A DNA stretch of 42,945 bases from Candidatus Desantisbacteria bacterium (lineage in GTDB: Bacteria; UBA9089; CG2-30-40-21), in contig JAZDHC010000039.1 of assembly GCA_043806395.1 (NCBI GenBank), positions 1-42,945 on the forward strand. Reading direction: 5' to 3'. The notes beneath the pieces are model-generated. The model was given only the letters and a program-made list of their open reading frames with translations, did not search any database and was not told where the DNA came from. Position numbers and translations under genes: made by a program. The first letter of the stretch is position 1. Every line of letters begins with the position of its first letter. This document shows positions 3,401 to 42,945 of the stretch, in pieces.

Positions 3401-4798
3401 ATGTATCTTGAGGGCATCACCTTCAACTAAGACAGGCTCAAATGACTGAATACCTGCCCGATGAAGTGTTGGGGCACGATTTAACATGATGGGATGACCA
3501 GCAATAACCTTTTCTAAGATGTCCCATACCTCAACCCTTTCCTTTTCAACCATTCTTTTAGCATTTTTGATATTATGGGCAAAGCCATTTGCTACTAATT
3601 GCCTCATAATAAATGGCTTAAATAATTCTAACGCCATCTTTTTCGGCAATCCGCACTGATGAAGATTCAAGGTAGGATCAACCACAATCACAGACCGTCC
3701 AGAATAATCTACTCGTTTACCAAGAAGATTTTGTCTAAATCTTCCCTGTTTACCCTTAAGCATATCAGACAAAGACTTTAATGGCCTATTCCCTGATCCT
3801 CTTACCGGTCTGCCCCGTCGGCCATTATCAAAGAGGGCATCCACTGCCTCCTGAAGCATTCTTTTTTCGTTACGAATAATGATCTCTGGCGCCCTTAGCT
3901 CCATTAATCGCTCTAATCTATTATTTCTATTAATTACCCTGCGGTACAAATCATTTAAGTCTGATGTTGCAAACCGTCCACCATCTAATTGGACCATTGG
4001 CCTGAGTTCTGGTGGAATAATCGGGATAACATCTAAAACCATATACTCTGGCTTATTTTCTGAATGACAAAACGCCTCCATAATCTCCAGCCGCTTGACA
4101 ATTCGTTTGCGTTTCTGCATGGAGGTTTCATCTCTCATCCCCTTTCTCAACTCTTTGGCGGATGCGTCTACATCAATCCTCTTTAATAATTCCTTGATAG
4201 CCTCAGCACCCATACCTACCTTAAATTTATCTCCATACTTTTCACGGTAACCTCGATATTCATCCTCAGTAAGCACATCTCGTTCTGCCAGAGGGGTATT
4301 GCCTGGATCCATAACAATATAACCCTCAAAATAAAGAACTAATTCTAAGTTCTTTACAGTAACATCTAACAATAGTGCCATTTGAGATGGAACCCTCTTA
4401 AAATACCATATATGTGAAACAGGACAGACCAATTCAATATGTCCCATCCGATGTCTCCGCACCTCAGAGCGGGTAACCTCTACCCCACATCTATCACAAA
4501 TTACACCCTTATATCGAATACTCTTATACTTGCCGCAAAAACATTCCCAGTCCTTGGTCGGTCCAAATATCTTCTCACAAAAAAGCCCATCCCTTTCTGG
4601 TCTAAAGGTTCTATAATTGATTGTTTCCGGCTTCTTTACCTTGCCATGTGACCATGACTTGATATTGTCAGGGGATGCCAACCCAATGGCTATAGAAGAA
4701 AAATTCATCATTCCTTCGCTGCTTTTTTGTTCAAACAAAGAGTCAAAGGTAACCTTTTGTTTTTTTTCAGGTATATTAAATGATTCAACTGGTTCCAA
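401..4798 (-). CDS. rpoC: DNA-directed RNA polymerase subunit beta'
   Basis: 1465-aa ORF with the NADFDGDQM catalytic loop, N-terminal Cys-rich zinc motif, trigger-loop MRTFHIGG and a large SI3-like insertion. TTG start at 4798 with AGGAGG 7 nt upstream. Follows rpoB. Confidence 0.98.
537..566 (+). repeat. CCCCC/GGGGG hairpin repeat copy embedded in the rpoC 3' coding region
   Basis: ATTCCCCCTTTGAAGGGGGTCAGGGGGATG closely matches the intergenic copies at 29853-29884 and 42871-42900 in the same orientation. Translated as ..PLTPFKGGI.. in the beta' tail. Confidence 0.7.
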
Positions 4799-4822
4799 TC
4801 TCGTGCCTCCTAATAATTGTAA

Positions 4823-4874
4823 GCATTCAGCTATCAGTTTTCAGCTGACAGTTTCCTGACTGACTGCTGATTGC
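4823..4874. repeat. Short low-complexity hairpin in the rpoB-rpoC spacer
   Basis: GCATTCAGC ... GCTGATTGC imperfect inverted repeat enclosing TCAGCTGA-type units. Related CATTCAGC/CAGTTGACAG words recur at 8432-8590. Confidence 0.45.
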
Positions 4875-4879
4875 TTCCC

Positions 4880-10354: not shown

Positions 10355-10390
10355 AACATTCACCTTCTTTTAGGAACATATAAAAGGCAA

Positions 10391-10463
10391 TTAGACTGTA
10401 GACTGTCAGGCTGTAGGTAAAGACGAATAACCTATAGCCTATAGCCTATAGCCTATAGCCTAA
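10391..10463. repeat. Hairpin with heptamer-unit arms (GCTGTAG / CCTATAG x4) between rplK and rplA
   Basis: TTAGACTGTAGACTGTCAGGCTGTAGG .. loop .. CCTATAGCCTATAGCCTATAGCCTATAGCCTAA. The arms are imperfect reverse complements, and the right arm is a 4-unit tandem heptamer. Confidence 0.75.
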
Positions 10464-10464
10464 A

Positions 10465-12132: not shown

Positions 12133-12155
12133 TTTTATCCCTCACTTAAATATTA

Positions 12156-12293
12156 CTACTTAGGTATATAGACTGTAGGTGTTTAGGTTGTAGGGTAAAG
12201 AAACAGAAACAGAAACACGGAATTATTAATGCAACACATCTGAAAAACTAACAGCCTACAGCCTAATTGTCTACAGCCTAACTACCTGAGTAG
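12156..12293. repeat. Long hairpin, CTGTAGG/CCTACAG-unit family, in the rpmG leader
   Basis: CTACTTAGGTATATAGACTGTAGGTGTTTAGGTTGTAGGGTAAAGAAACAGAAACAGAAACACGGAATTATT .. AACAGCCTACAGCCTAATTGTCTACAGCCTAACTACCTGAGTAG. Same family and loop core as 13816-13935 and the partial copy at 22345-22400. Confidence 0.8.
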
Positions 12294-12307
12294 TTACGAA
12301 AGATCAT

Positions 12308-13788: not shown

Positions 13789-13817
13789 TTGACTTTAATT
13801 GTAAATTATGTTAAACT
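13789..13817 (+). promoter_or_regulatory. Sigma-70-type promoter for the CDF transporter / mqnA unit
   Basis: TTGACT - 17 nt - TAAACT. The -10 abuts or overlaps the first bases of the hairpin repeat at 13816. Confidence 0.5.
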
Positions 13818-13935
13818 ACTCAGGTGTTTAGACTGAAGGCTGTTAAACTGTAGGGTAAAGAAGCAGAAACAGGAGAATTATTGATGTAGTTCGCGTCTTT
13901 CAAACTAACAGCCTTCAGCCTAAACACCTGAGTAG
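13816..13935. repeat. Long hairpin, CTGTAGG/CCTACAG-unit family, in the CDF gene leader
   Basis: CTACTCAGGTGTTTAGACTGAAGGCTGTTAAACTGTAGGGTAAAGAAGCAGAAACAGGAGAATTATT .. AACAGCCTTCAGCCTAAACACCTGAGTAG. The 11-bp termini are perfect inverted repeats. Confidence 0.8.
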
Positions 13936-13970
13936 TTACGATATAATATCCTCCTGGAGGGCTAAAAGCG

Positions 13971-19470: not shown

Positions 19471-19515
19471 AGCATTCGTGCTTGGTGAATTCCGATTGCA
19501 CAGGTGGTATTTTTT

Positions 19516-19590
19516 GCCACGAATTATACAAATTATACGAATAATAAAATCTTCCCCCTCCCTATTCGTGCTATTCGTGTAATTCGTGGC
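19516..19590. repeat. Hairpin with 9-nt unit arms (ATTCGTGNN)
   Basis: GCCACGAATTATACAAATTATACGAATA .. loop .. TATTCGTGCTATTCGTGTAATTCGTGGC. Confidence 0.75.
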
Positions 19591-19618
19591 TAAAATTCTC
19601 CTCTTCTTTCATTTTATT

Positions 19619-19679
19619 GTAGGGGCAGACCTATGTGTCTGCCCTCAAATACAGGGCGAACACATAGGTTCGCCCCTAC
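19619..19679. repeat. Inverted pair of REP-like units overlapping the larC stop codon
   Basis: GTAGGGGCAGACCTATGTGTCTGCCC .. GGGCGAACACATAGGTTCGCCCCTAC. The TAG of the second unit (minus strand) is the larC stop. Confidence 0.8.
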
Positions 19680-20821
19680 GATACCCTGATACATTCCCAA
19701 TACACTTCTTGTAAGGGTACATCTTGTTCTATAGCAATTCTGCGACATTCTTCATATTCAGGCATAACCCTTTTTTTGTCTTCAATGGTTGCTTCCTTTG
19801 CCGTTAATATGCCGTACCTTGTATTTAACTCTACTGATTGGCGAGGAAGTTTTTTTCGTGGCATTCGTTGTATTCGGATACCAATGGTGGTTGTTTGAGA
19901 GAAGATAAAGGAGATTAATCTGTCTACGGTTTCCTCCAGAGTAAGTACACTTAGGAGTATTCCCATCCTGTTTTTTTTCCCATGAATTGGGGTCAGGTAA
20001 ACATCTAAGGCTCCTTGCTTCATTATCCCTTCCATCAAATAATCGTATATCTCCGGGTTCATATCATCAATATTAGTGGAAAGCAGGGTAACAACATCCT
20101 CCTCATAAATATCTGTTGTCTCACCTATAAAAACGCGTAATATATTGGGAATGTTTGTCTCATGGCTTCCTGCCCCATAGCCGATCTTTTTCACTCTCAT
20201 TTTCGGCATGCAATCAACACCCGTTCCAAGGGTAGTAATAATAGCTGCACCCGTAGGGGTGGTTAATTCCTTATCTGCTCCAGGCGAAGAATATACAGGA
20301 AAGCCCTTTATCAATTCAGCGGTTGCTGGTGCTGGAACAGAGAGTATGCCATGTTCACAACAAACCTTTCCGCCACCCAGATTTAATGGGGATGAATAAA
20401 TCTTGTCTATTCCAAGATAATGCAGAGACAGGACACTGCCCACCACATCAACCAAAGTATCCTTATCCCCTAACTCATGAAAATGCACCTCGTGGGAATG
20501 GATACCATGGGCAAATGCCTCTGCCTGAACCAATCGGTCTATTATCTGGCAGGAGGTTGTTTTTATCCCTTCATCTAAGCTGCTCTTATTAATGATAGAA
20601 AACATTTCTGTCGGAGAAAGTCTTTTTGTATCCACAAGAACATGAGCACATAACCCCTTGAGTCCAGACATGGTAACACTTGTGGTTTCAAGAGAAAACT
20701 CTATCTCCATACTGGACAACTCTTGGGTTAACCATTTAATATCTACCCCGGCATCAAGCAATGCCCCCAAAATCATATCACCGCTTATACCGGCAAAACA
20801 ATCAAAATAAGCTATTTTCAA
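19676..20821 (-). CDS. larC: Nickel-pincer cofactor biosynthesis protein LarC (DUF111 nickel insertion protein)
   Basis: Preferred TTG at 20821 ((M)KIAYFDCFAGISGDMILGALLDAG.., the canonical LarC N-terminus) with GGAG 7 nt upstream, 381 aa. The track start at 20998 reads through the hairpin repeat (..LCLCVSAV..). Confidence 0.85.
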   Translation of the reverse strand: MKIAYFDCFAGISGDMILGALLDAGVDIKWLTQELSSMEIEFSLETTSVTMSGLKGLCAHVLVDTKRLSPTEMFSIINKSSLDEGIKTTSCQIIDRLVQAEAFAHGIHSHEVHFHELGDKDTLVDVVGSVLSLHYLGIDKIYSSPLNLGGGKVCCEHGILSVPAPATAELIKGFPVYSSPGADKELTTPTGAAIITTLGTGVDCMPKMRVKKIGYGAGSHETNIPNILRVFIGETTDIYEEDVVTLLSTNIDDMNPEIYDYLMEGIMKQGALDVYLTPIHGKKNRMGILLSVLTLEETVDRLISFIFSQTTTIGIRIQRMPRKKLPRQSVELNTRYGILTAKEATIEDKKRVMPEYEECRRIAIEQDVPLQEVYWECIRVS

Positions 20822-20842: not shown

Positions 20843-20990
20843 ATTCACCGCAGAGACACAGAGGCACAGAGAGGGAAATATGGGATGTGTCCCTGCATTT
20901 CCCCTGCATTTCCCTTGCATTTCCCTATCTGTGAAATCTGTGAAATCTGTGTAATCTGTGGATATATTCTTCTCTGTGCCTCTGTGGTAA
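20843..20990. repeat. ORF-less hairpin, CGCAGAG-unit family, with internal 11-nt and 9-nt tandem units
   Basis: ATTCACCGCAGAGACACAGAGGCACAGAGAG .. CCTGCATTTCC x3 .. ATCTGTGAA x3 .. TTCTCTGTGCCTCTGTGGTAAA. Confidence 0.8.
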
Positions 20991-20994
20991 ATTT

Positions 20995-23955: not shown

Positions 23956-23966
23956 TATCAGTCTCC

Positions 23967-24280
<314 letters not shown>

Positions 24281-24287
24281 CTCCCGT

Positions 24288-26571: not shown

Positions 26572-26578
26572 TAATTAT

Positions 26579-26680
26579 CAATTCAGCAATTCAGCAATTG
26601 ACAATTCAGCAATTGACAATTGATAATTACTGAATTACTGAATTGCAGAATTGATGAATTACGGGATTGATGAATTACGG
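26579..26680. repeat. Low-complexity hairpin built from AATTNNNN 7-8 nt units
   Basis: AATTCAGC AATTCAGC AATTGAC AATTCAGC AATTGAC AATTGAT | AATTACTG AATTACTG AATTGCAG AATTGATG AATTACGGG ATTGATG AATTACGG. The halves are imperfect reverse complements. Confidence 0.7.
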
Positions 26681-27590: not shown

Positions 27591-27595
27591 AAGAT

Positions 27596-28045
27596 ATTCA
27601 CCGCAGAGACGCAGAGGCACAGAGAATATATGGGAATAAATCAGATAACAGAGAAAATTATTGGCGCAGCAATTGAAATACATAGGACATTGTGTCCAGG
27701 TTTATTAGAATCTGCTTACGAAGAATGCTTATGTTATGAGCTATCTATGGCAGGTCTACATTTCAGAAGACAAGTTGAATTGCCTGTGATATATAAGGGC
27801 ATTAAATTAGATTGTGGCTATCGAATGGATATTCTTATTGAAGAAAAAGTTGTGGCAGAATTAAAAACAGTGGAAAAATTACTACCAATTCATGAGGCTC
27901 AACTTTTAACCTACCTAAAAATGATGGATAAAAGGATAGGCTTGTTGATTAATTTTAATGTTTCTGTTCTCAAGGATGGAATTAAACGCATAGCACATAA
28001 CTTTTGAATTTTCTCTCTCTGTGTCTCTGCGTCTCTGCGGTGAAT
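27596..28045 (+). mobile_element. 450-bp cassette: GxxExxY gene flanked by ~30-bp terminal inverted repeats of the CGCAGAG hairpin family
   Basis: Left ATTCACCGCAGAGACGCAGAGGCACAGAGA (27596-27625) versus the reverse complement of the right end ATTCACCGCAGAGACGCAGAGACACAGAGA (28045-28016) gives 29/30 identity by hand. Confidence 0.65.
27630..28007 (+). CDS. GxxExxY family protein (PD-(D/E)xK nuclease-like, PDDEXK_3)
   Basis: 125 aa, ..[25 protein letters not shown].. (GLLESAY = GxxExxY) and ..[13 protein letters not shown].. (D..ExK). No recognisable SD. Confidence 0.8.
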
Positions 28046-28066
28046 ATTTACTTTATGAGGTGTATC

Positions 28067-29698
28067 ATGCTCATACGACCTACTCTTGGATTTAAGCTTA
28101 TCCTCTCTGTCAGCCTTTTGGTAATCAGCCTTGCTGTAATTTTAGGCAGTTTTTTTGTTTGTGAACAGAAAGCACTTATTGAAAGCGAGCTTCGTAATCG
28201 TGGGTTATCACTATCTGAAAATCTGGCTTATAATAGCGAGTATGGGCTGCTTTTTGAGAATAAGGAGATGCTGGATAAACTTATTCAGGGCGCAATTAAA
28301 AATGATGATATAGCCTTTGTAGCTATTTGTGATCAAAATAGCAAGATTATTGCCTCTTCTGCTAATTCGACATTGTGGGTAGATTTCCTCAAGGGTGTCA
28401 GGACAACTCATAGTACCATCAATCAATATTCTTACAAGGGCAAGAATGTGTATGATATTATTGCCCCTATCTCTACTGTCAGGGGGATAAACAAGGGTGA
28501 AGGGTTAATCTTTGATAGCCAGATTAGTCAAACAAGGCAAGAAAATATTGGGTTTGCCCGAGTAGGGGTATTGCTTGAGAACAAGGAAAAAACTGTAAAA
28601 AACATACAAATGATTGCCTTTTTTATTTCTCTCCTTGTTATTATAGGTGGAATAATCTGGACTGTATTGTTAACCAGAAGAATCACCCAGCCAATAAAGC
28701 AATTGGTAAGGGTGACTGCAAGGGTAGCTGAAGGGGATTTATGTCGTTTCGCAAATGGGAAGATACGGCATGATGAGATTGGAGATCTTATCGCTGCCTT
28801 TAATGCGATGACCGAAAAATTATCTGAATCAGCTGAACAGATAGAGGCATATACGAAAAACCTTGAACAAATGGTTGAAGAGCGGACGAAAGAACTAAAA
28901 GATGCAAATGAAAAACTTAAAAAACTCGATGAGTTAAAAAGCAACTTTCTTTCGGTTGCAGCACATGAACTAAGGACACCACTGACATCTATTCGGGCAT
29001 TTAGTGAGTTATTGCTTGATGATCCTGATGGGGATATAAATACCAGAAGTGACTTCTTAAAGATTATGAAAGAAGAAACCGAAAGGTTGACTCGGATGAT
29101 TAATGATATACTTGATCTTTCTAAGATAGAGGCAGGGAAAGCAACATGGCATATGCAGGATATTTCTATGGTAGAGGTTGTTAAATCCGCTGTCGATAAA
29201 ATAAAGGGGTATATTGTTCAACAAGGTGTACTCCTGAGCGTAGATGTTCCGGCATACATTTCAATTGTTACTGCTGATTATGATAAATTGATTCAGGTAA
29301 TGGTTAATCTCCTGAACAATGCCCTCAAGTTTGTTGGGGATAATGGAAGAATAGGGGTTAAGATTTACGAAACAACAGAGCCGCAAAACCATGAGGTTAT
29401 TACCGCTATCTCTGATACTGGTCATGGCATCCCGCCAGAAAAACTTGGCAGTGTCTTTGAAAGATTCTGTCAGATAGAAAATATCCCCACAGAGGTAAAA
29501 GGCACCGGGCTTGGCTTGACTATCTGTAAGGAGATTGTTGAACGCCTTGGTGGCAGGATATGGGTGGAAAGTGAGATTGGTAAGGGGACAACATTTTTCT
29601 TTAGTTTGCCGGTGAAGGGAACAAATATTTCGGAGGAATATTCCGCTCTTCGCAGGAATGATGCCGGAGAACCTGGATTCCTGCCTTCGCAGGAATGA
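28067..29698 (+). CDS. Sensor histidine kinase (TM - extracytoplasmic domain - TM - HAMP - HisKA - HATPase_c)
   Basis: H-box ..AAHELRTPLTSI.., N-box ..NLLNNALKF.., G-boxes ..DTGHGI.. and ..GTGLGL... Preferred ATG at 28067 with GAGGTG upstream. The track start at 28004 reads through the cassette's right repeat, and the last ~20 codons are encoded by GGAATGAC-family repeats. Confidence 0.9.
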   Translation: MLIRPTLGFKLILSVSLLVISLAVILGSFFVCEQKALIESELRNRGLSLSENLAYNSEYGLLFENKEMLDKLIQGAIKNDDIAFVAICDQNSKIIASSANSTLWVDFLKGVRTTHSTINQYSYKGKNVYDIIAPISTVRGINKGEGLIFDSQISQTRQENIGFARVGVLLENKEKTVKNIQMIAFFISLLVIIGGIIWTVLLTRRITQPIKQLVRVTARVAEGDLCRFANGKIRHDEIGDLIAAFNAMTEKLSESAEQIEAYTKNLEQMVEERTKELKDANEKLKKLDELKSNFLSVAAHELRTPLTSIRAFSELLLDDPDGDINTRSDFLKIMKEETERLTRMINDILDLSKIEAGKATWHMQDISMVEVVKSAVDKIKGYIVQQGVLLSVDVPAYISIVTADYDKLIQVMVNLLNNALKFVGDNGRIGVKIYETTEPQNHEVITAISDTGHGIPPEKLGSVFERFCQIENIPTEVKGTGLGLTICKEIVERLGGRIWVESEIGKGTTFFFSLPVKGTNISEEYSALRRNDAGEPGFLPSQE

Positions 29699-29787
29699 CA
29701 CTTGTTTCGCAGGAATGACATTTGAGGAATCCAGAGGGAACAAAGAATTGCAATGGAATGTCATTCCTGCGAAGGCAGGAATCCAGA
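29650..29787. repeat. Cluster of GGAATGAC / GTCATTCC units
   Basis: CGCAGGAATGAT..CTGGATTCCTGCCTTCGCAGGAATGAC..CGCAGGAATGAC .. GTCATTCCTGCGAAGGCAGGAATCCAG. Overlaps the histidine kinase 3' end. Confidence 0.75.
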
Positions 29788-29852: not shown

Positions 29853-29884
29853 ATTCCCCCTTAAAAAAGGGGGTTAGGGGGTTG
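29853..29884 (+). repeat. CCCCC/GGGGG hairpin repeat
   Basis: ATTCCCCCTTAAAAAAGGGGGTTAGGGGGTTG. Near-identical copy at 42871-42900 and a coding copy at 537-566. Confidence 0.8.
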
Positions 29885-29950: not shown

Positions 29951-32900
29951 CTAAAAATCATACCCCAAACTAAAATGTGTTACCGACCCTGATGGTGAAT
30001 TTATAAAATCCGTGCCCCGGGCATAATCTATCCTTATGGGAAAAACCCATAGGTTTGACCTTATCCCCCAACCAAATGCACCCCTTATCGGGTTTTCAGC
30101 GTCAGCCTTACGGAATACTGGTGGTTGTCCTTCGCGCCATGCAGCACCAACATCAAAAAATACAAGGGAACGAATGTTTCTAATAGATACTGGTAGGGCA
30201 AATTGAATGGTATCAATCAATGGGAAACGAAACTCAAATGAACCCTTGGCAAATGCCTTTCCCATTATTTCTGTCCCTCCCCTGAATTCATCAACAAAAT
30301 ATTGTTTTACCCTTCCATTTTCATCTGTAACAATTATTCCCCCATTGCCGAGGATAAATGTGGTTTGGTCCCGTCCGGTTGAGGTTTTACCGCTAAGTTG
30401 AAATGCCATGGCAGACCTGTTGCCAGCCTTGATATACTTTCGCAGGTCTATCTCAAGATTAGTAAAATCAAGATCATTATTTGAAAGATGGATTGTATTG
30501 CTAACCCCTATCCTTGCCCTTGAACCACCAATGGGTCCGTCCCACGACCAGACAGTTGTATCATGAATAAGATCAGCTGAGACAAGATTTATATTCTCCC
30601 TTTTGGTTGATGGGGCAGGCAAAATACAGTCAGTTACAACCCTTTTGGATGTAAGCCCAAACTCTACTCGACGAAATATATCCAATGGATAGGAAATATT
30701 ACCAGAGATACCAGAATTCTTTTCCTTAAATTCCTCACCGATGAATCTATAGGAATTAGACCAATCAGATATATCTACCTCACAGGAGGCTCTTTTGCCA
30801 AGATAAAGATAGGCAAGGATGAAATTGGCGTCCCCGGCAAGAGAGGATGATGCATCACCCCTCCAGATAATTCGATGGTTACCAAGCACATCGCTCATAG
30901 CCAACTCTCCTACCCCTGCAAATCCATTAGCAGAGCTGTACAACATATCCATTCTTCTCCAGTCAAAGGTAATCCTTGTTTTGTATGGGATTATGTTCCC
31001 ATCTCGGACAGGGACGAGCCCTGTCCCGACAGTAGAGGTACTACCCATTTTCCCCTGCATTTCTGGCTGAATCCAGACGATTGCCAAGGGCTTTTCATGA
31101 AAATAAACAGCATTTCCCCCATTTTCATAGGACGAAAAACTCAGCTTATCGCCCATATATCCACCATTAAATGCCCCGCCAAAGTAATCTGTCACTTGAG
31201 CTATCTCACCTGTTTGGGAGTTGGGAGTTGGGAGTTGAGAGTTGAGAGTTGGGAGTTGAGAGTTGGGAGTTGGGAGTTGAGAGTTGGGAGTTGAGGGTTG
31301 GGAGTTGGGAGTTGGGAGTTGAGAGTTGGGAGTTGAGGGTTGGGAGTTGTGAGTTTTTTTCTCCTGTCCACTACTAACTGCCAACTGCCGACTGTCAACT
31401 GACCCCTGCCGACTGTCCTTTACCGCCCAAATGTTGTATGTCTTATTAAGCAGACACGAGCAATAAACAATATCACCTTCCGGTGACCAGAATGGATCTA
31501 TTTTTGGCAGATCAGGCAATGCAAGTCTTTTAACCTCCATAGTATCCATATTCAACACACAAAGATCCGTTGTCGTTCCCGACTCACGGATAAATGCTAC
31601 TTTATTCTGGGCAGGTGAATAGGCAGGCTGTCTATCCATTCCATGGGTAATCTTTTCCAGCTTTTTTGTGGGGATATTAAAGCTATAGATATTGCTTTCC
31701 CCATTTTTAAGTCCTGAGAGGAGGATGTTGTCGCTATCCTGAGCAAAGCACAAAGAGGAGATATTATCCAAATCTACCTTTATTTTCTTTAATAATTTAT
31801 TATCAAATACATCAAAGAGGAAAATAACATCCCTGTTCTTATATTTAGCAATAAAGGCAATCCTTGAACCATCCCTTGAATAGGCAGGTCCTGCCTCAAA
31901 ACTGAGGTCTTCAAATTTTACCCCCCGCATCCCTTCTGTAATATATTTAACCACCGTTCCATCTGATGTTTTCATTAAGGCTATGCAGGGGATGCCATCC
32001 TTAATAATAGTAACTGCCACAAGATCTCCGCCGGGTGAAAATGATGGGGCAGCAAGGATTACCTGATCTTTGAAAATCTGCTGGCTGTCATCAGCAGCAA
32101 GCCTTCTTTTGGCTACCTCAGGGTAATATGCTTTACGGAGTGATTTTATCCATCCTGTTTCTAATTGTCTAATATCAACGCCCAGTGCTTGTTTGATAGT
32201 CCCTTCCAACCCTGCACTTTTTTTGAATTTTCTCAAAAGGATGGATACCTTTTCCTCTCCATAGGTTTGGGCAATATATCGCAGTAGGGAATGGCTTTCC
32301 TGATAGGCAAGAAATACATTACCAGTCATTCCGAAATCTGTTAAATTTTCTAATGGGTCAATACGATTTTCCACAACCGCATCCACCAGCATCATATGCC
32401 CCATGGGGTCAAATACCCCTGTTTCAAATTCAGCCAACCCCTCCATAAACCACATGGGCGGGATAGCAGAGGCAGAAAGCATGGATTGTAAGCCCTCAGC
32501 ATAAAGAACATCATAGGTAAAGACATGGACAAGCTCATGGGTAATAACCTTTTTGAATCGTAAATAGCTGCCGTCAAAAGGGATAACCATACGGGACTTT
32601 ATAACCTCAGAAAACCCTCCGACTCCTGGGTCAATCAATTCTGTGATAATATTTGTCTGCCGAAAGTCATAATGGGATTTGAAGATAATAAATGGAATGG
32701 GGCTTGAGACCTGATGCCTCAAGCTCTGGCTGATTTTAGCATAAGCCTCTTCAGCCATAGATGCCGCAACCCTGGCTAAATTTTCTGTCTTCTGGTCATG
32801 ATACACCTCAAAATGTTCTGTTTTTAATATCTTCCAGTCAACTTTGTTGTATCTGACCTTATTTTTCCCAAACTCATTCTGAGCTGATACGGAGGAGGTA

Positions 32901-34682: not shown

Positions 34683-34778
34683 ATTTACCTCATCTTTGGT
34701 GATCGGTAATAGTGGCATAATGTCATAGGATAAGTACTTCCTACCTTATTACCCTATGACCTTATGACCTTTCCCCTC

Positions 34779-37741: not shown

Positions 37742-37770
37742 ATAATAACACAAATTCTCTCGTATGTCAA
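37742..37770 (-). promoter_or_regulatory. Sigma-70-type promoter for the pseudopilin gene set
   Basis: Minus strand reads TTGACA - 17 nt - TATTAT. The start codon at 37720 lies ~15 nt after the predicted start site. Confidence 0.5.
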
Positions 37771-37778
37771 GAATTATC

Positions 37779-37807
37779 TTGACAAAAGGCAGGATTTGGG
37801 GTAAAAT
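37779..37807 (+). promoter_or_regulatory. Sigma-70-type promoter for hslU
   Basis: TTGACA - 17 nt - TAAAAT. Its -35 and the divergent -35 form the palindrome TGTCAAGA-ATTA-TCTTGACA (37765-37784). Confidence 0.55.
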
Positions 37808-37832: not shown

Positions 37833-37939
37833 AAGGCTGTAGGCTGTAGGTTAGGAAAGGGAAGGATATGGGATAAATAATCTGTCTTCTGCCTTTCTCC
37901 TTCCTACCTACAGCCTATAGCCTAATAGCCTACAGCCTT
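37833..37939. repeat. Long hairpin (GCTGTAG / CCTACAG units, GGAAGGGAAGGATATGGGATAA loop family) in the hslU leader
   Basis: AAGGCTGTAGGCTGTAGGTTAGGAAAGGGAAGGATATGGGATAAATAATCTGTCTTCTGCCTTTCTCCTTCCTACCTACAGCCTATAGCCTAATAGCCTACAGCCTT. Confidence 0.8.
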
Positions 37940-37965: not shown

Positions 37966-39330
37966 ATGCAAGATTTAACCCCCAGAGAGATTGTCAGTGA
38001 ACTTGACAAATACATTATTGGTCAGGATAAAGCCAAAAAGGCAGTAGCTATTGCCTTAAGAAACCGTATCCGAAGACAAAGGTTAGCAGAAGAGTTGAGG
38101 GAAGAGGTTTCTCCGAAAAATATTATCATGATTGGTCCCACGGGTGTGGGTAAAACAGAGATTGCGCGAAGGCTTTCTAATTTAGCCAATGTCCCATTTC
38201 TCAAGATAGAGGCAACAAAATTTACAGAAGTAGGTTATGTTGGTCGGGATGTGGAGTCAATGGTGCGGGACCTTACCACTATGACGGTAAATTTAGTTAA
38301 GCAGGATGCTATGAAAAAGATAGAGAAAGAGGCTCTGGACATGGTTGAGGAAAAAATCTTAGATATTCTCTTGCCTTTACCAAAGACAAAGAAGAAGAAA
38401 AAATCTGATACAGAAGAAGTGGATATTGCTGCACAGGAAGTGGAAAAGATTCAAAATAGTCGTGAAAAACTACGGAAAAAACTACAGCAAGGTAATTTGG
38501 AAAATAGAATGATAGAGATAGATACTAAGGATACCTCTATGCCTATGTTTGAGATATTTGCTGGAAGTGGAATGGAAGGGCTTGATATGGGGCTGTCTGA
38601 TGCCTTAAGCACGATGCTGCCGCAAAAGGTTAAGAAAAGAAAGGTGACTGTTGTAGAGGCTCGTAGAATCCTGATCAATGAGGAATCACAAAAATTAATT
38701 GATATGGAAGATATCCTTAAGGATGCCATTAACCGCATAGAAAACCAGGGGATTATCTTTTTGGATGAATTGGATAAGGTGGTCAGTACAGGATCCCGAA
38801 CAGGTGGACCAGATGTTTCCCGTGAGGGTGTTCAACGGGATTTATTGCCTATTGTTGAGGGAACTACTGTTACTACCCGTTATGGGCCGGTCAGAACAAA
38901 TCATATCCTCTTTATTGCTGCTGGAACATTTCATGATGCAAAACCAGCAGACATGATCCCGGAATTACAGGGAAGGTTTCCTATCAGGGTAGAACTCTCT
39001 TCATTGGTAAGGGAGGATTTTATCCAGATATTGACCGAGCCACGAAATGCTATTATTAAACAATATGTGGCTTTGCTTGGAACTGAGGGGGTTGAGCTAC
39101 AGTTTAAGGAAGATGCTATACATGAGATTGCTTCCCTTGCCGCTACTGTTAACGAAAATACTGAAGATATTGGAGCAAGAAGACTTCATACTATTATGGA
39201 AAAGGTGGTTGAGAATATCTCCTTTGAAACCCCACCCCGCACAGGAACGGTTATTATTGATGCTGAATATGTGCGGTCTATGTTAAATGAGATTATTAAG
39301 GATAAGGATTTGAGCAGGTATATATTGTGA
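37966..39330 (+). CDS. hslU: ATP-dependent protease ATPase subunit HslU
   Basis: 454 aa, [34 protein letters not shown].., Walker A GPTGVGKT and the I-domain insertion. GAGGTG RBS. Confidence 0.96.
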
Positions 39331-39338
39331 GGGGGAAA

Positions 39339-39657
39339 GGCTTTTAGTCTGAAGGCTGAAGGTAGGAAGGGAAGGATATGGGATAATATGGTTCTATCAC
39401 GATTTGTGTGGGTAAATAAGAGATAGGTTTATCGCTTTCATTCCACACCAGAGTATGTCATCTGGAGGTATTTCTACTTCCATGTGCGGGGGTTAAATGT
39501 ATACTTTGGAGTAGTTAAAGCGATAAACCTTCTTCAATACATATTAAGAATGTTCTGTAAGGTTGATAAAGAACCAACTTTATCTTACCCACACAAATCG
39601 TAATAGAGCCGATAATATTTCCTGCCTTTTTCCCTCATACCTTCAGCCTAAAAGCCT
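39339..39657. repeat. Hairpin of the same family as 37833-37939, interrupted in its loop by a MITE
   Basis: GGCTTTTAGTCTGAAGGCTGAAGGTAGGAAGGGAAGGATATGGGATAATAT [insert] GATAATATTTCCTGCCTTTTTCCCTCATACCTTCAGCCTAAAAGCC. Confidence 0.8.
39390..39610. mobile_element. 221-bp MITE-like element with ~26-bp terminal inverted repeats and an 8-bp target-site duplication
   Basis: Left end GGTTCTATCACGATTTGTGTGGGTAA versus the reverse complement of the right end GGCTCTATTACGATTTGTGTGGGTAA (24/26). Flanked by GATAATAT at 39382-39389 and 39611-39618. Internal second inverted repeat GGTTTATCGCTTT / AAAGCGATAAACC. No ORF. Confidence 0.8.
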
Positions 39658-42731: not shown

Positions 42732-42783
42732 ATTATTACCTCGTAATTGGTAGCTACTCACCAAAGAAACAGACTAAGATTAT

Positions 42784-42810
42784 CCGCAGATTACGCAGAT
42801 TACGCAGATT
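42784..42810. repeat. Tandem 9-mer (ACGCAGATT x3)
   Basis: CCGCAGATT ACGCAGATT ACGCAGATT, probably one arm of a hairpin-family element. The partner arm was not identified inside the window. Confidence 0.6.
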
Positions 42811-42870
42811 AAGATTTTTTGGGACGGTTCACCTTTGTTTGAAAGCTTGCGGTTAGTTGAGAGTGCAATA

Positions 42871-42900
42871 TTCCCCCTTAGAAAAGGGGGTTAGGGGGTT
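42871..42900 (+). repeat. CCCCC/GGGGG hairpin repeat
   Basis: TTCCCCCTTAGAAAAGGGGGTTAGGGGGTT, near-identical to 29853-29884. Confidence 0.8.
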
Positions 42901-42945
42901 GTATTCTGTAGATGATGTCTCCTTGCCCGAAAGGAATCATATGAA

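Follow-up and report, generated by a model that had tools for sequence, protein, structure and literature searches.

The window, by which we mean the whole stretch of DNA analysed here (42,945 nt, contig C39 of a 2.73-Mb, 330-contig assembly with 40% GC), carries a nusG-rplKAJL-rpoBC cluster and pilin-like genes, with hairpins in many of the spacers. A cyanobacterial origin of the window was rejected on the basis of this gene order, an unsplit 1465-aa rpoC and an RplA that is 97% identical to that of Candidatus Desantisbacteria CG2_30_40_21. The sites were checked by TRF, an inverted-repeat finder and RNA folding, and comprise the following elements, with strand where one was assigned.

231-421: copy of the dispersed element MITE-A, ~190 nt; TIR TGTCTCRWCAAC, 4-bp duplication CTAC.
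282-360: core of this MITE-A copy, hairpin CGCAGAGN x3 / NCTCTGCG x3; -50 kcal/mol, z -9.9.
4821-4876: rpoB-rpoC spacer hairpin, TCAGCNN/GCTGANN, ~2 units per arm; TRF row 4826-4854.
10391-10463, minus strand: flagged hairpin in the rplK-rplA spacer (10364-10464); -32 kcal/mol, z -4.1.
About 12152-12298: element with GTAACTACTYAGGT inverted ends and subterminal AGGCTGT-type heptamers; z -5.6.
13814-13937: second element, AACTACTCAGGTG at the ends, arms of GGCTGWA heptamers; -60 kcal/mol, z -9.1.
19511-19595: CRC-type hairpin, three 9-nt CACGAATNN units per arm, outer end GCCAC; z -7.0.
About 20843-20992: CRC-type nested hairpin with TTCACCGCAGAGACACAGAGGCACAGAGA arms; z -5.6.
26577-26680: AT-rich hairpin of CAATTSAN 8-mers, 79% complementary; z -6.3.
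27594-28047, plus strand: full cassette, arms ATATTCAC-CGCAGAGN x3, 97% complementary, enclosing an ORF.
34718-34770, minus strand: short hairpin between pilin-like genes, GGTCATA(R) units, unequal arms; z -5.5.
37834-37938, plus strand: heptamer hairpin AGGCTGT/ACAGCCT in the 5' leader of gene 37966-39330; -54 kcal/mol, z -6.1.
39338-39657: GGCTGAA heptamer hairpin, loop split by a separate ~220-nt dispersed repeat (39389-39610).
42781-42811: lone 5' arm ATC-CGCAGATTA x3, the remainder displaced by another dispersed element.

The first-pass annotation had listed ten sites in the window as hairpins whose arms are themselves built from short tandem units, and nine of them fold strongly (-20 to -60 kcal/mol, z -4.1 to -9.9), with none of 200 shuffles matching the native fold. 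The tenth, at 42784-42810, is a single arm that does not fold as a hairpin in the window (z -0.8); the contig ends 135 nt beyond it, at 42945, and complete CGCAGATTA hairpins are present at other loci of the genome. The annotation was also borne out in placing hairpins within operons, namely in the rplK-rplA spacer, between rpoB and rpoC, and between the pilin-like genes. On the sense strand, the flagged rplK-rplA hairpin consists of a 5' arm of AGGCTAT x4 and a 3' arm of TACAGCC/GACAGTC-type units. The inverted-repeat finder showed the arms at 13814-13937 to be 32 nt long and 97% complementary, and the outer ends of the 12156-12298 element recur at 13814-13940 as well as in the congener G005. 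Several hairpins contain further repeats. The loop of the 20843-20992 hairpin holds the arrays CCCTGCATTTC x3 and ATCTGTGAA x4 together with a REP-like motif, GGGAAATATGGGATGTGTCCC, and the ~220-nt repeat that splits the loop of the GGCTGAA hairpin has at least 12 copies in the genome at 97-99% identity. A search of Rfam matched no family to any hairpin, the sole match in the window being a tRNA.

Other repeats also occur in the window. A GTAG-tagged palindrome pair, TGTAGGGGCAGACCTATGTGTCTGCCCT / AGGGCGAACACATAGGTTCGCCCCTACG, at 19615-19683 adjoins a unit-built hairpin and forms a classical REPIN-like doublet with unique-sequence arms; its word is also translated in a Y1-like ORF of contig C203. 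At 29640-29786 lies an inverted repeat, CTGGATTCCTGCCTTCGCAGGAATGACA / TGTCATTCCTGCGAAGGCAGGAATCCAG, that is perfect over 28 nt and comes with a tandem 20-nt unit. It overlaps ORF 28004-29698 at the 3' end of the latter, and neither of its arms is built from units. Heptamer arrays of CTCCCAA/TTGGGAG occupy 23966-24285 and 31214-31401 (46 and 20 units), the latter lying inside a 1000-aa ORF and being followed by an inverted AACTGCC array. The motif CCCCCTTAGAAAAGGGGGTTAGGGGGTT (AGGGGGTT x2 after a small hairpin) occurs at 29868-29883 and 42885-42900, is the commonest array of the genome (217 arrays) and is also nested in the loops of CGCAGATT hairpins; it is often found ~60 nt inside a contig end and so probably forms the terminus of a further dispersed element. 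The genome additionally encodes five RAYT-like Y1_Tnp (PF01797) genes (C93:630-1592, C253:688-1644, C20:1-612, C294:5378-6049 and C203:11402-12256), each flanked by its own REP-like hairpin with stuttered end duplications, for instance CCAATTCTG x5 beside the C93 gene. The C203 Y1 ORF contains in-frame REP copies (VGADLCVCP repeats), and TnpB (PF07282) is absent from the genome.

The unit-built design proved to be abundant throughout the genome. We counted 2161 non-overlapping arrays of period 6-12 in the 2.73-Mb sequence compared to 459 in a Markov shuffle. Pairs of the same unit no more than 300 nt apart were overwhelmingly inverted (186 inverted, 15 direct), and the shuffled genome contained neither kind. 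When partners were sought more tolerantly, an inverted one lay within 160 nt of 51% of intergenic arrays and a direct one within this distance of 2%, against 0.2% in shuffles. Forty-one unit types were represented, many of them at a single locus. The proposal that one design is realized in many unit sequences is confirmed. Among 195 pairs within 600 nt, 72 were copies of MITE-A, 23 were copies of a second element and 78 had unique loops. The hairpins are mainly intergenic, with 5 of 72 representatives falling inside gene calls, which for these genome-wide counts were crude (ORFs of at least 100 aa). Within co-directional spacers they begin a median of 15 nt past the stop codon and end ~28 nt before the next start. 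A T-run follows the 3' arm in only 2 of 49 hairpins, which led us to reject the interpretation of these elements as intrinsic terminators. Flanking genes were arranged in tandem in 49 cases, convergently in 4 and divergently in 4, roughly like the background of spacers (1453/143/138) by counts alone. The same design was found in every sampled family of the phylum and also in unrelated MAGs labelled Nitrospirota, Bacillota and Desulfovibrio.

Comparison of the arms revealed two builds. In build 1, each arm consists of three 8-9-nt CRC+purine units with conserved outer ends, as in TTCAC-CGCAGAGN x3 ... GTGAA, TATC-CGCAGATTN x3 ... GATA and GCCAC-CACGAANN x3. Build 2 has arms of 2-35 heptamers, including AGGCTGT, GGTCATA, CAGTTGA and GGTAATC. 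Consistent with this division, about three units per arm were found in 79% of period-9, 50% of period-8 and 19% of period-7 arms, the latter ranging from 2.1 to 34.6 units. Arms are specific to their family and conserved. CGCAGAG-type arms always have three units with TTCAC/GTGAA ends and enclose unrelated loops at no fewer than 13 loci; more generally, build-1 loops are mutually unrelated and vary from 22 to 390 nt. No fewer than 30 loci of the related genome G003 carry the 30-nt CGCAGAG arm at 100% identity, G005 has 111 matches to it, and build-1 arms of 24-30 nt are identical across genera.

The two arms of a hairpin also follow a fixed order. The purine-rich arm is the 5' one in 33 of 39 unit families (p 1e-5), and the orientation CGCAGAG...CTCTGCG outnumbers its reverse by 82 to 0. 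Since an inverted repeat reads alike on both strands, this polarity is a real structural rule. Two causes that we considered were rejected as sufficient and account for only part of it. Stop codons in three frames showed a weak trend (24 of 87 5' arms, 10 of 87 3' arms), with build 1 lacking stops altogether; a Shine-Dalgarno (SD) sequence is located in the arm of some cassettes, while many have a separate SD in the loop. One idea is that the polarity avoids a C-rich, unpaired first arm that might serve as a Rho loading site. Some genes of the GxxExxY family described below have the upstream arm in its pyrimidine form.

Full-length elements carry a gene between their arms, and the type of gene follows the build. 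The window cassette at 27594-28047 encodes a 125-aa GxxExxY / PDDEXK_3 protein (27630-28007; PF13366 match, 149 bits), and both full-length PF13366 matches of the genome that stand alone rather than within larger proteins are located in build-1 loops (27630-28007 and C302:9120-9464). Two of the three PF05635 four-helix-bundle genes of this genome lie inside heptamer-arm hairpins, where a stem of complementary ends encloses the ORF (C21:11754-12074 and C7:4761-5072); phylum-wide, such a stem encloses 16-18 of 26-27 PF05635 genes. PF05635 is homologous to Avd, an accessory protein of diversity-generating retroelements (DGRs; PMC10053308). In a survey of 25 Desantisbacteria genomes, single genomes contained up to 44 GxxExxY and 17 four-helix-bundle copies. 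The arm period was 8-10 for all 20 armed GxxExxY genes and 7 for 13 of 17 armed four-helix-bundle genes, an association that was significant on clearly periodic arms (Fisher p 2e-4), with the qualification that related genomes are not independent samples. The cargo ORF starts ~15 nt after the 5' arm and stops 2 to 8.5 nt before the 3' arm; clear arms are missing at about a third of the genes of both kinds. Our literature search found no paper connecting GxxExxY or four-helix-bundle genes with tandem-unit arms.

Some four-helix-bundle genes have neighbours of a different kind. On contig C118, the sequence GTTCCCTGTGTGGGAGCGTGGATTGAAAC at ~3570-3600, upstream of the four-helix-bundle gene 3698-4009, resembles a CRISPR repeat. 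A four-helix-bundle gene adjoins cas4 on an Anabaena 90 plasmid and another lies between cas6 and cas4 on a Pseudanabaena plasmid.

We additionally compared orthologous sites among relatives and found that the same spacer can be empty or differently filled. The site of the window cassette occurs in four states: in G004 the spacer is just 11 nt long, indicating that the site is empty; in this genome it is filled with the GxxExxY cassette, in G001 with a gene-less heptamer hairpin, and in G002 with a four-helix-bundle gene in AATTAAA heptamer arms. A second such site is the 5' leader of gene 37966, where G001 and G003 have no insert and four genomes (this one, G002, G004 and G005) have differing ones. 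A conserved promoter, TTGACA-17-GGTAAAAT, is located at 37770-37800 of the window and at the corresponding place in L082-L086, and the 37834-37938 hairpin lies between this promoter and the ribosome-binding site (RBS). Since all of the variable inserts fall between the -10 box and the RBS, they are part of the transcribed leader of gene 37966-39330. Three relatives (L002, L003 and L005) have different unit-built hairpins in the rplK-rplA spacer, a short hairpin is present there in L004, and those of L001 are non-tandem; L002 and L003 share the same unit in different numbers. At the four-state site, the unit-armed cassettes showed no clear target-site duplication at their borders; a possible GCAATTT duplication was seen in one case, in G005. 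None of the inserts was found in helix 25 or 45 of 23S rRNA, the examined cases lying between protein genes or in 5' leaders.

Shortened copies of the cassettes have multiplied. G005 contains at least 15 short elements that consist of the 5' arm, the 3' end of the ORF and the 3' arm of GxxExxY cassettes and have two recurrent internal-deletion breakpoints in common, which is the signature of amplified non-autonomous derivatives. The genome holds at least 70 MITE-A copies that are nearly identical, and many of these sit at the ends of contigs. An alignment of 17 full copies confirmed the TIR and revealed a matching 4-bp duplication (CTAC/GTAG/CTAT) at 13 of 15 sites. Elements are also nested within one another, two MITE-A copies having inserted into AGGCTGTAG arrays.

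From these sequence comparisons, we consider it probable, though well short of certain, that the hairpins represent selfish elements, namely small insertion cassettes together with miniature derivatives of these, in two builds, rather than low-complexity DNA grown in place. A full build-1 cassette would carry a gene for a GxxExxY nuclease of the PD-(D/E)xK type, and a full build-2 cassette a gene for an Avd-like four-helix-bundle protein of the family encoded by 23S rRNA intervening sequences. Gene-less hairpins would be deletion derivatives that have kept the arms and with them the ability to multiply. Cassettes would land in the short spacer right after a stop codon, in 5' leaders and inside one another, and each heptamer arm may then expand or contract on its own by replication slippage. 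Each copy of the repeated word could serve as a recognition unit for a protein, perhaps the one encoded by the cargo gene. Within operons the hairpin would be transcribed and probably processed by RNase III, like an rRNA intervening sequence. No transposase or other mobility mechanism was identified for the unit-armed cassettes, and the full-length partners encode GxxExxY nucleases or four-helix-bundle proteins rather than known transposases.

A different explanation, and to our mind an unlikely one, is that the hairpins are intercistronic mRNA structures selected by the host as stabilisers, RNase III sites or insulators of translational coupling, for which unit arms are merely an easy way to make a long stem. 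This would account for their occurrence in essential operons, a median of 15 nt past the stop codon and ~28 nt ahead of the next start, for the lack of T-runs that sets them apart from terminators, and for arms that are conserved around loops that cannot be aligned between relatives. It would also fit the rplK-rplA spacer, in which every relative has some hairpin of differing sequence, and which could reflect a host need for a hairpin at this position. However, sense-strand G.U mismatches were not in excess over A.C mismatches (74 vs 57, p 0.16), and orthologous sites may be empty. Selfish spread is what the bursts of near-identical copies and of deletion derivatives point to, and the cargo genes are unconnected with the flanking operons.

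The first-pass annotation had itself suggested that the arms arise by slippage within a hairpin with compensatory copying, and here the two halves of the proposal came apart: gains and losses of units in a single arm were observed, but the arms do not co-vary element by element. In the alignment of 17 full MITE-A copies, one copy carries four units in its 3' arm and another just two in its 5' arm, in each case with the number in the opposite arm unaltered. Neither the point changes nor the unit indels of one arm are mirrored in the other. When arms were ranked by gapped comparison, an arm matched its own partner slightly better than the partners of other elements (percentile 0.38, chance 0.5, p 0.001); this advantage was absent from AGGCTNT, the largest heptamer family (percentile 0.51), and ungapped comparison within and between elements gave 0.76 and 0.75 (p 0.44). 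A unit-shuffling test was discarded because shuffled partial end units break the period and inflate z. The two arms are only moderately correlated in unit number (rho 0.47), and in many hairpins they differ widely, as in 17 vs 35 or 10 vs 31 units. Mismatches of the G.U and A.C types likewise showed no strand bias. A simpler account fits these results: if the two arms repeat a single word, slippage in each arm independently would leave them complementary, and no copying from arm to arm would be needed.

These results bear on the possibility that each hairpin was generated locally, by replication slippage in a pre-existing hairpin that was copied to the other arm by template switching (quasipalindrome correction). 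The long tail of single-locus types among the 41 unit families, the differing unit number of the shared unit in the rplK-rplA spacer, the single-arm indels of MITE-A and the correlated unit counts all speak for such a process. Against it, element-specific matching is weak overall and missing from the largest heptamer family, changes are uncompensated and arms are grossly unequal. Build 1 is moreover fixed at three units with identical arms across genera, sites are empty or filled with no intermediates, and deletion derivatives have been amplified. We therefore regard local generation as improbable, and insertion cassettes with family-specific, conserved arms fit the data better than the generation of arms at each site.

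Spread of REP/REPIN-type elements by RAYT-like Y1 transposases, with the unit arms as reiterated REP tags, is very improbable: the idea arises from GTAG within AGGCTGTAGG and CGTC within CTCTGCGTC, tags that define REP super-families (PMC3733652), and draws on the five PF01797 genes, on the stuttered partial tandem duplications of the Y1 genes' own hairpins and on a REP-like motif beside the C294 Y1 gene that recurs in window hairpin loops, yet AGGCTGT-type and CGCAGAG-type arms are absent from the flanks of all five Y1 genes, the tags are found within paired units rather than at a fixed unpaired end, and the cargo genes are not Y1 transposases.

Returning to the cassette interpretation, its value is that repeat arms and cargo genes become one unit, so that two descriptive puzzles are turned into a single testable element. 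This one-unit view follows from the build that is specific to each cargo, from the empty and filled orthologous sites and from the amplified deletion derivatives. Tandem repeats of 7 nt are the commonest long simple repeats of prokaryotic genomes, and the STRRs of cyanobacteria have served strain typing since 1990. To our knowledge, the origin and function of STRRs are still without explanation, as are the small GxxExxY and four-helix-bundle proteins. A broader and decidedly more tentative proposal is that the dispersed 7-9-nt tandem repeats of bacteria, STRRs and look-alikes included, might be the arms of two related kinds of selfish cassette, with each repeat of the word bound by the protein that the cassette encodes. 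The GxxExxY nuclease would then use three 8-9-nt CRC words and an oligomeric Avd-like protein runs of heptamers, the nuclease or an associated activity would move the cassette, and gene-carrying 23S rRNA intervening sequences would represent a special landing site. The elements also have practical consequences, as they break short-read assemblies (many contigs of this MAG end in them), inflate ORF calls and occupy ribosomal-protein and RNA-polymerase operons.

Among known systems, REP/REPIN elements with RAYT (PMC3116915, PMC3733652) resemble the hairpins described here in being short, abundant intergenic palindromes that are often found in operons. In REPs the arms are of unique sequence and bear a single GTAG or CGTC tag, which by definition is terminal and unpaired (PMC3733652), whereas here both motifs sit inside repeated, paired units; unit-built arms are absent beside the Y1 genes, whose flanks carry other hairpins, and an association of these arms with RAYT was accordingly rejected. 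The foldback transposons of Drosophila (FB, and Galileo with tandem repeats in long TIRs; PMC4168063) likewise have inverted tandem-repeat arms and a variable middle that sometimes contains a gene, but they are eukaryotic, have arms of hundreds to thousands of bp and depend on a known P-superfamily transposase, and thus offer an analogy only.

MITEs share with our elements the TIRs, the many near-identical ORF-less copies (here at least 70 of MITE-A and at least 15 GxxExxY derivatives in G005), the deletions with shared breakpoints and the nested insertions, and in MITE-A the combination of TIR and 4-bp duplication is classical. The unit-armed cassettes differ from MITEs in that their full-length gene is not a known transposase, their borders show no clear duplication and their arms are internally periodic. 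The 23S rRNA intervening sequences of Leptospira and Coxiella (S23p/PF05635) have in common with the cassettes a stem formed from the ends of the insert, a PF05635 gene in the loop, and empty and filled sites among relatives. They reside in rRNA helices, whereas the inserts described here lie between protein genes and in 5' leaders, have stems that are arrays of short words and include a second cargo, GxxExxY, with its own arm build.

A close parallel is provided by the STRRs, and it qualifies the earlier view that the design is unusual compared to classical REP/BIME or MITE families: the unit-built arms are real, but hairpin-forming STRR arrays are known in cyanobacteria, where heptamer arrays of this kind are "not unusual in filamentous cyanobacteria" (PMC2670836). 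Like the arrays described there, including the hairpins of the hupS-hupL and hoxW regions, those of the present genome consist of tandem 7-nt units in several families at many intergenic sites, as reflected in 398 period-7 TRF rows, 36 independent period-7 hairpins with 2-35 units per arm, and 41 unit families of which few representative hairpins fall in gene calls. Build 1, with its three 8-9-nt units, lies outside the heptamer definition, and the published STRR description used for this comparison (PMC2670836) makes no link to cargo genes or to insertion behaviour. Eight four-helix-bundle genes of cyanobacterial plasmids were sampled, and 6 of them are enclosed by inverted tandem-unit arms, a layout seen in Nostoc, Tolypothrix, Leptolyngbya and Anabaena. 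The other two, on plasmids of Pseudanabaena galeata (L176) and Oscillatoria nigro-viridis (L171), lie in direct arrays; such arrays around a four-helix-bundle gene can take the form of AAAAGCT x14 upstream and AAAAGCC x10 downstream. Since the design around four-helix-bundle genes is shared with cyanobacterial plasmids, the hairpins of this genome represent the STRR-hairpin class outside the cyanobacteria. What our analysis adds is a second build with cargo specificity, a site in four states, amplified deletion derivatives, negative tests of compensatory copying and the polarity rule that places the purine-rich arm at the 5' side.
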